A stretch of DNA of 64,000 nucleotides. It comes from Malacoraja senta (Eukaryota). Position numbers and translations under genes: made by a program. The stretch is from assembly GCA_038087875.1 (NCBI GenBank), contig CM075990.1, positions 12,092,001-12,156,000 on the forward strand. Reading direction: 5' to 3'. The notes below the pieces were generated by a model, which ran no database searches, had not been told where the DNA came from, and saw only the letters and a list, made by a program, of their open reading frames with translations. This document shows positions 26,750 through 35,455 of the stretch, piece after piece (positions within the stretch are counted from its first letter, which is position 1; the number at the start of each line of letters is the position of its first letter).

Positions 26750-26939
26750 TCTTCTTCTTTTCGTGTCCATCTTGTTACAAATGTTGGCCTCGCTGTCATC
26801 GTCCGTCCTGAAATGGACGCAAGCTTCCGGCGACAATCAGTGGAAGCCATCACTTGTAATCGATGATGGTGGTAGCAGAATGAACTCAGGATACTTCCAG
26901 TATCCAGCCCCACGACGTGGACGCTTCCACTATGGGGAC
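26750..26939 (-). mobile_element. Short non-autonomous retroposon with a degenerate 5' HDV-like ribozyme and (AAG)n tail
   Basis: TSD GTGGGCTTC (26741-26749) / GTAGGCTTC (26940-26948); minus-strand 3' end TGGACACGAAAAGAAGAAGA. Confidence 0.78.
26873..26939 (-). ncRNA. HDV-like ribozyme fold, probably degenerate
   Basis: P1 GUCCCC/GGGGCU (1 mismatch), P2 UAGUGGAA/UUCUGCUA, P3 GCG/CGU, L3 UCCACGU, P1.1 GG, P4 AUACU/AGUAU. J4/2 (CCUGAGUUCA) is longer than canonical. Confidence 0.65.
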
Positions 26940-30780: not shown

Positions 30781-31074
30781 TTGATAAACTAATCTAATTT
30801 GACTGCACATGATCCATATCCCTTCGTTGGATATGCATATGTCTATCTAAAAGCCTTTTAAACATCACTATCCTATCTACCTGCACCCCCCCCCCCCCCC
30901 CAGCAACGTGTTCCAGGCAACCATTTTTATGTGTAAAAATATCACTCACCTCACACATCCCCTTTAAACCTTGCTCCTCTAACCTTAAAGCTACGCCCTC
31001 TGGTCTTTGTCATCCACCCTAGGGAAAAGGTTCAGACTCTCTAATCTGTGCCTCATCATTTTATACTGTAGACT

Positions 31075-31126
31075 GGGGCCAAGGAAAGAGCGTTCACGTC
31101 GCGGCCCTGTTTCCACCAATCTTTCC
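31075..31126 (+). ncRNA. Minimal HDV/CPEB3-like self-cleaving ribozyme (predicted)
   Basis: P1 GGGGCC/GGCCCU with a G1-U wobble, P2 GGAAAGA/UCUUUCC, P3 GCG/CGC, L3 UUCACGU, J1/4 GU, P4 replaced by UUCCA, J4/2 CCAA (catalytic C at 31116). Confidence 0.85.
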
Positions 31127-31243
31127 ACCACCACGCACAAGGAGCGACAAGACAGACACCATTGTACGCAGATGCCGAGACGTGTGTTCATCTCCGGCTG
31201 GACAACTTCTGATCTTGTGTGTGGACTCCATAAGAAGAAGAAG
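31075..31243 (+). mobile_element. Short non-autonomous retroposon with a 5' HDV-like ribozyme and (AAG)n tail
   Basis: Perfect TSD ACTGTAGACT at 31065-31074 and 31244-31253; 3' end TAAGAAGAAGAAG; first base is G1 of the ribozyme. Confidence 0.88.
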
Positions 31244-31273
31244 ACTGTAGACTTGACCATTAACAACTGCTTT

Positions 31274-31582
31274 ATTTAGTTTTTGTTTAGTTCAGAAATA
31301 CAGCATGGAAACAGACCCTTGGGCCCACCGAGTCCGCGCCTACCAGTGATCCCCGCACACTAACACTATCCTACACACTGGGGACAATTTTTTACATATC
31401 TATCATACCTATAAACCTGTACGTCTTTGGAGTGTGGGAGGAAACGGAGGTCCTGAAGAAAACCTAGGCAGGTCACAGGGAGAACGTACAAACTCCGTAC
31501 AGACAGCACCCGTGGTCAGGATCGAACCGGGGTCTCTGGCGCTGTAATGCAACAACACTACCTCTGTTCCACCGTGCCGCCC
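31274..31582 (-). mobile_element. tRNA-derived V-SINE (HE1-like)
   Basis: Family copy lying just downstream of the ribozyme retroposon. Confidence 0.78.
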
Positions 31583-35312: not shown

Positions 35313-35455
35313 GAACCTCCGTGACCAAACTGCGGGCCAGAGATCCAGACAACGACACGCTTGTGTTTGGCGTCGCGGGGGAAGAAGCCAGCAAATACTT
35401 TGCCGTGGAAAGCGAGACCGGTGTGGTATGGCTTCGCCAGCCTCTGGATAGAGAG
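35313..35455 (+). CDS. CDH23: Cadherin-23 coding exon (equivalent to human exon 4; EC1 domain)
   Basis: Flanked by ttccacAG and GTgctt; 143 nt. Translates (G)TSVTKLRARDPDNDTLVFGVAGEEASKYFAVESETGVVWLRQPLDRE, versus human GSSVTQLLAQDMDNDPLVFGVSGEEASRFFAVEPDTGVVWLRQPLDRE (recalled). Confidence 0.95.

Follow-up and report, generated by a model that had tools for sequence, protein, structure and literature searches.

R2, RTE, Ingi and other long interspersed elements (LINEs), and their short derivatives, are known to start with ribozymes like that of hepatitis delta virus (HDV) (PMC6765202, PMC5786205). One HDV-like ribozyme lies in an intron of CPEB3 and has been reported as mammal-only, without outgroups; its murine copy stands 9931 nt before its exon and affects mRNA maturation, and the available part of that report names no source element (PMC10919898). 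That intronic ribozymes may be domesticated from mobile elements has been put forward as a general idea, no source being named in the available part of that paper (PMC7761336). Here we describe a locus in the skate Malacoraja senta that bears on this origin. All positions refer to the window, a 64,000-nt stretch analysed on the forward strand (CM075990.1, 12,092,001-12,156,000). The window holds, in an intron of CDH23, what we judge with good confidence to be a retroposon copy whose first 52 bases are a predicted HDV-like ribozyme, likely mobilised by a Vingi LINE, with a head likely of the Vingi lineage that founded the CPEB3 ribozyme. The mammalian CPEB3 ribozyme itself is likely an exapted Vingi 5' head, with outgroups that are abundant and in some cases young: five families in this cartilaginous-fish genome, one 92% identical outside loop L4 and one lacking helix P4 and present in hundreds of copies or more.

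The predicted ribozyme at 31075-31126 reads GGGGCC AA GGAAAGA GCG TTCACGT CGC GGCCCT GT TTCCA CCAA TCTTTCC. P1 (31075-31080/31103-31108) has 6 bp, including the G1-U wobble G31075-U31108; J1/2 is AA; P2 (31083-31089/31120-31126) has 7 bp; P3 (31090-31092/31100-31102) has 3 bp, with L3 at 31093-31099; and P1.1 is the single pair C31095-G31109. A 5-nt linker (31111-31115) replaces P4, and J4/2 is CCAA (31116-31119), in which C31116 aligns with the catalytic C57 of CPEB3 on the Rfam model RF00622. The nested double pseudoknot expected of an HDV-like ribozyme, P1/P2/P3/P1.1 with complementary strands, is present, as are the G1 wobble, U31093, C31095 and G31098 in L3, and C31116 with its A-rich J4/2 strand; the second J4/2 base is C and no purine. 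Re-reading the sequence upheld the initial annotation, which had described these stems as intact, P1 as one pair shorter than in CPEB3 and P4 as absent. Its CPEB3-like core with a one-pair P1.1 was also recovered: RF00622 scores the copy at 33.3 bits (E 3.7e-7), below the gathering cut-off of 35, and P3 and L3 are identical to those of CPEB3. No other HDV-type Rfam family matches the copy at E<=10, and an Rfam scan of the entire window at gathering score returns 0 matches. The 19-nt block shared with CPEB3 has a single occurrence in the window and none in 100 shuffles, and an HDV descriptor run on both strands of the window fires at 31075 only. These results speak against a chance match.

The window element (31075-31243) is a ~170-nt non-autonomous retroposon copy with a 10-bp target-site duplication; the bounds first annotated, 31065-31253, are the outer ends of its two duplications, and the ribozyme is the 5' head of a repeat, called family E here. 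Searching the genome with the window element gave 1224 first-look candidates, of which 40 were scored, at 93-100%. A 25-nt core has 733 exact genome matches, against 0 for its reversed control, so that at least 733 copies lie in 1.94 Gb, or one per ~2.7 Mb. The boundary was examined in 60 copies picked by the inner core alone from 100 listed places (three pairs are duplicated loci). There the majority base reaches 82% at G1 and 92-100% at the next seven positions, and 28-52% at the 12 upstream positions. A recognised tail is found in 40 of the 60. In 32 of these the duplication is exact over 7 nt or longer (shuffled pairs: mean 2.4, maximum 7), and it ends within 1 nt of G1 in 23 of the 32. 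Homology and duplications stop at G1, and therefore the 5' end of family E coincides with the predicted cleavage site, as in L1Tc/NARTc. Separately, the base ahead of G1 is a T in 31 of the 60 copies (22 of 30 in a first set) and belongs to the duplication; a preference for certain targets, or pairing to a non-templated A of the cDNA, may be the reason.

With its dispersed copies, simple-repeat tail, variable duplications and no open reading frame (ORF), family E belongs to the non-autonomous non-LTR retroposons. It is not a short interspersed element (SINE) headed by tRNA, 5S or 7SL sequence: homology starts at the ribozyme G1, and an Rfam scan of 30900-31400 finds no tRNA, 5S or 7SL match. 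P1, P2, P3, P1.1 and the C four bases ahead of P2 are all retained in the family E majority, and J4/2 is CCAA in 41 of the 60 copies (4 other, 15 not parsed). The window copy is 5.8% diverged from the majority of 30 copies, chiefly in the body. Its head differs solely by a T-to-C change in P1, a minority state (3/60) that turns a wobble into a Watson-Crick pair.

The RF00622 genome search scored the best 60 of a rough 102,231 candidates, and 39 of these 60 pass the cut-off of 35 (best 64.2 bits), against 0 of 14 control genomes. Thirty loci from this search fall into five families, A (12), B (3), C (5), D (4) and the window's family E (6). Family A extends over 3.14 kb. Nine copies of it are 95-98% identical, and copy L142 has an intact ORF of 1002 aa; the family A protein has APE and reverse transcriptase (RT) domains and no match to RNase H. 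A single ORF with APE and RT and without RNase H is the layout of Vingi elements (PMC13708176). A complete predicted ribozyme heads family A, scoring up to 64 bits on RF00622, and this head matches, by eye, the printed 5' ends of Vingi-2_Gav (3128 bp), Vingi-4_Crp, Vingi-2_SPur and Vingi-1_BF (PMC5786205, supplement). The family E head is 84% identical to that of family A over 32 nt, and a short tail motif is also shared, the family A end GACACGAA(AAG)n paralleling the family E majority GACTCGAT(AAG)n; the bodies do not align. By its layout and the 5' match to named elements, family A, a young LINE, is likely of Vingi type. It is also the likely partner of family E; the RT tree described below holds unnamed homologues only. 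Homologues of the family A protein occur in Anolis, amphioxus, sea urchin, insects and bony fish, and no relatives of it were found in viral contigs.

It is most improbable that RTE-clade LINEs, and not Vingi, mobilise family E. DUF6451-bearing elements, which we take to be RTE, are abundant in this genome. Thirty DUF6451 loci show no match to the window element at E<=0.01, and both its head and its tail are similar to those of family A and to Repbase Vingi ends. What gives the RTE alternative its appeal is that RTE elements carry ribozymes and yield many bipartite derivatives (PMC5786205). The search for an RTE partner, through PF20049, had given 150 genome matches, from which these 30 loci were taken. 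A second autonomous family was likewise sought through the C-terminal 150 aa of the family A protein; the 79-88% matches obtained are frameshifted family A copies with 96-98% identical DNA.

Several observations concern family A and the minor families themselves. One locus (L147) encodes a protein 86% identical to that of family A (91% in RT) and clusters with a bony-fish protein (the P0004 cluster), a hint, from sequence, of horizontal transfer between fish lineages. At the family A 5' ends of L097 (G000:C8:932200-938200) and L142 (G000:C4:35486100-35491100), a 26-nt unit is present in 4-6 tandem copies and spans from GATC in the P1 5' strand to GATC in the P1 3' strand; slippage of the reverse transcriptase between the two palindromic sites is the likely cause. 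Families B, C and D (L035, L039, L043; L042, L044, L046, L052, L055; L224-L233) are old and low-copy, and share the ribozyme and only ~25-45 downstream bases, with no clear tail; one locus (L232) has a short AAG tail directly after the head. These head-only fossils resemble the state of the mammalian CPEB3 ribozyme.

Compared by eye with the RF00622 consensus of CPEB3, the window copy shares P3, L3 and six P1 pairs, and 6 of 14 P2 nt. The 7-bp P1 and 7-bp P4 of RF00622, absent from the window copy, are present in families A and C, and RF00622 describes a single conserved locus in CPEB3 intron 2, whereas the window copy is one copy of a repeat, in CDH23. Because only 6 of 14 P2 nt match and P4 is gone, the window copy is by this comparison a reduced, distant cousin of the CPEB3 ribozyme and not its closest relative. 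Family C comes far closer: the majority of its five copies (from the RF00622 search; tighter searches gave 3 each, and the L042 query was swamped by a flanking repeat) shows, again counted by eye, the consensus base at 58 of 63 positions outside L4 (92%), with 7/7 pairs in P4 and 6/7 in P2, the seventh being compensatory. In published elements, P2 and P4 of the alligator SINE2-1_AMi are, by eye, identical to the CPEB3 consensus (28/28 nt; PMC5786205, supplement, 2018), and Vingi-2_Gav matches it at 46 of 48 positions outside P4. The initial annotation had put forward elements of this kind as a source of the CPEB3 ribozyme; this is well supported for the class, here named as Vingi LINEs and their short derivatives, to which the window copy belongs as a distant cousin. 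In SINE2-1_AMi the Vingi-derived ribozyme stands behind a tRNA head and is changed at the first and last L3 positions; these changes may have abolished cleavage, which would leave the tRNA head attached.

Convergence on the HDV core, and not descent, could also produce similarity to CPEB3. R2 shares 21 of 27 core nt with HDV (PMC8256844), and the match of the window copy to CPEB3 lies mostly in P1, P3 and L3. Against this, family C and SINE2-1_AMi keep the identity across P2 and P4. Drift in these stems should be tolerated, because swaps of the P4 or P1/P2 sequence left the rate of a designed ribozyme unchanged (PMC6326823); the chance of 7/7 P4 and 6/7 P2 pairs in family C is ~1e-7 per lineage, as a rough estimate. 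In 2.9 million viral contigs the core pattern occurs in 2 stretches, neither with a P1 partner nor, by inspection, a ribozyme. Five HDV-like heads of other LINEs score nothing on RF00622 (see below), and we regard convergence as very improbable. Capture of the head from mammals is implausible because the head type occurs in invertebrate elements; the simplest direction is that a Vingi head inserted into CPEB3.

Related LINEs were examined in a metagenome set of 74 relatives, 29 loci of which were inspected, many of them truncated. An HDV-like fold lies just upstream of the ORF in 8 of the 29 (three being one element). Six such heads were scanned, and only one (L151) matches RF00622, at 55.6 bits; the other five give nothing on RF00622 at E<=10, and one of them weakly matches another HDV family. 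In an RT tree of 34 rows, midpoint-rooted, without an outgroup and with only two CPEB3-type lineages, the RT of L151 is sister to the family A clade (100/97), and the RTs of the five heads without an RF00622 match fall outside a 22-row clade supported at 100/99. Since three loci within that clade have no ribozyme by descriptors, the CPEB3 type is not shown for all of its members. A relaxed form of the descriptor finds nothing in 15 metagenome loci and gives hits in 9 of 150 pieces taken at random from the window. In three loci (L148, L160, L164), stretches upstream of the ORF that the descriptors do not parse resemble, by eye, the 3' half of another HDV-like type (GGCAAC...GGCTAA in L148 and L164).

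Between family E and the other families, the differences in P2 are compensatory. In an alignment of 13 chosen heads from the five families and one metagenome element (one row is one base out of register in P1), 88.4% of cells pair, against 38-46% in slid controls, and both sides change in 13 of 25 pairs. Of five covariation measures set against 500 shuffles, three beat all and one was reached by 6, figures that are inflated by the relatedness of the heads. A P1 of 6 or 7 bp is normal in HDV-like RNAs, with 6-bp forms among the active ones (PMC4908430), and ribozymes lacking P4 are described as active (PMC10879173, PMC6326823). Taken together, we consider that the family E head probably cleaves, as a prediction from the modelled fold. 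The window linker resembles a family D P4 that has suffered two deletions (alignment to L048), and the P4 reduction appears to have arisen by deletion in a vertebrate retroposon.

Several results weigh against reading the window copy as a cleaving, Vingi-mobilised head, besides the narrow sampling of the RT tree. No descriptor ribozyme is found in 21 of the 29 metagenome loci, many truncated, including three in the clade of the Anolis protein. The family E body matches neither family A nor the 74 metagenome relatives (E<0.3), and none of the 60 core-selected copies leads into an ORF; for these reasons the direct parent LINE was not found. One covariation measure, 'further pair types', is no better than shuffles (491/500). 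J4/2 CCAA departs from the CRRA of one design study (PMC6326823). An alternative 5-bp P2 formed through the linker is predicted at 0.25-0.55 with 35-60 nt of host flank, and the Pr77 case indicates that a fixed 5' end can stem from an internal promoter (PMC3383444).

Part of this evidence would fit a Vingi-derived relic that no longer cuts, having lost P4 and one P1 pair, and whose fixed 5' end comes from an internal promoter or protein recognition. The likeness of the linker to a family D P4 with two deletions, CCAA in J4/2, the alternative P2 and the L1Tc head, which is promoter and ribozyme at once (PMC3383444), all suit such a relic. It is less easily reconciled with the retention of P1, P2, P3, P1.1 and the J4/2 C in the family E majority, with the compensatory P2 changes between families, or with the described activity of P4-less and 6-bp-P1 ribozymes (PMC6326823, PMC10879173, PMC4908430). 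We consider a relic unlikely, while giving it appreciable weight, and retain the reading of a head that probably cleaves.

Folding predictions bear on how cleavage might be assayed. Judged by minimum energy, 31040-31140 folds no better than its shuffles do (z 0.03) in a program that cannot form pseudoknots. In nested-fold predictions the probability of P1 depends on host flank: it is 0.96 when the flank is 20 nt or shorter, drops to 0.0 at 35 nt and stands at 0.48 at 60 nt. A 31040-31140 transcript, proposed as a cleavage test, could yield a false negative because P1 is predicted to be sequestered at that length. C31116U is, by alignment, the correct catalytic control.

The copy lies in the sense orientation within a ~111-kb CDH23 intron, 4.24 kb before the acceptor of the exon at 35313. 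This placement follows from exons located on both sides (Table 1), the preceding one lying ~76 kb upstream of the window start, absent from the 64-kb window and matching CDH23 residues 2-22; the ~4.2 kb first annotated is accurate.

Table 1. Parts of the retroposon copy and the neighbouring CDH23 exon, in window positions.
Feature	Position	Strand	Basis or remark
Left target-site duplication, 10 bp, ACTGTAGACT	31065..31074	+	3' end at predicted cut site 31074/31075
Predicted HDV-like ribozyme, retroposon 5' end	31075..31126	+	RF00622 alignment, descriptor and family comparison
Retroposon body, common to family members	31127..31223	+	Family alignment
Retroposon 3' end, GACTCCAT + (AAG)4	31224..31243	+	Family majority GACTCGAT; similar to autonomous LINE end GACACGAA(AAG)n
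Right target-site duplication	31244..31253	+	10-bp repeat of the left one
CDH23 exon (EC1 repeat), downstream of element	35313..35455	+	Matches residues 25-72 of solved CDH23 chains

The first annotation suggested that this copy could cut CDH23 pre-mRNA during transcription and compete with splicing, in the manner proposed for CPEB3, which would amount to co-option for tuning the splicing of that gene. The sense intronic position ahead of the acceptor recalls the murine CPEB3 ribozyme, which lies 9931 nt before its exon and affects mRNA maturation (PMC10919898), and the head is intact, its minority P1 change turning a wobble into a Watson-Crick pair. The suggestion is not supported: with at least 733 copies in 1.94 Gb, some would lie sense in long introns by chance, the copy is 5.8% diverged, and host flank is predicted to compete with P1, lowering its probability as given above. 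Co-option in CDH23 is thus rated highly unlikely; the location itself is probably incidental and the copy there a passenger. The surrounding sequence is dense in SINE and LINE fragments, with at least 60 direct-repeat families in the window, one of which starts at ~31272, just past the element. On the minus strand at 26750-26769, a short GGACACGAAAAGAAGAAGA stretch resembles the family A 3' end, and no family A match occurs in the window at E<=1e-3.

The favoured reading, a Vingi-mobilised retroposon with a self-cleaving head, implies the following cycle. Transcription of a copy would start at an internal promoter or come with a host transcript that carries the copy along. Cleavage by the ribozyme immediately ahead of G1 would leave an RNA that starts at the first base of the element. 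A Vingi APE-RT protein, the presumed partner, would bind this RNA at its GAC-CGA-(AAG)n end and copy it into another site, where insertion would leave the duplication of ~7-14 bp that is observed together with the tail. Since cleavage takes place on the 5' side of the ribozyme, the ribozyme would be passed on to every new copy. An insertion of this type into CPEB3 intron 2, earlier than the marsupial-placental split, was likely retained and gave rise to the CPEB3 ribozyme.

If this is true, Vingi heads supply the outgroups of the CPEB3 ribozyme and a mechanism for its origin, and the retuning of a retroposon processing signal for neuronal gene regulation becomes testable. For the Vingi clade, which now serves in RNA-only gene insertion, a ribozyme would also be predicted in the 5' untranslated region of some elements at least. 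The value of the window locus is as a pointer to Vingi heads as the likely source and missing outgroup of the CPEB3 ribozyme. The main text of PMC5786205 does not call the Vingi head a ribozyme and has 0 occurrences of CPEB3, and the available part of a 2026 review (PMC13708176) gives no ribozyme for Vingi and no CPEB3. No paper linking Vingi and CPEB3 was found in a search that lacked some older key papers, Repbase and Dfam, and on balance the link seems to be unpublished.

Among known systems, the CPEB3 ribozyme resembles the window copy in its HDV-like double pseudoknot, one-pair P1.1, identical P3 and L3, identical 19-nt block and sense intronic position, and sister families in this genome are near-identical to it over the full length. 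The window ribozyme differs in heading a multi-copy retroposon, with a 6-bp P1, no P4, 6/14 P2 nt and CCAA in J4/2. Vingi LINEs and their derivatives have the same 5' head type, family A has the layout of the clade at ~3.1 kb, and the tail of SINE2-1_AMi resembles that of family A; in contrast to SINE2-1_AMi, the window element has no tRNA head, and its body is unmatched to family A or the 74 relatives. Minimal HDV-like or theta ribozymes also lack a P4 domain, but nearly 99% of them are reported from gut phages (PMC10879173), whereas the window's is in a vertebrate retroposon. The closest parallel in organisation is NARTc/RIME with L1TcRz (Pr77), in which a short element shares a 5' HDV-like ribozyme, cut at +1, and a short 3' end with its LINE (PMC3383444). 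Ingi is the sister clade of Vingi. The window family differs from NARTc/RIME in its vertebrate host, its reduced fold without P4 and its CPEB3-type sequence, and is a prediction from sequence.
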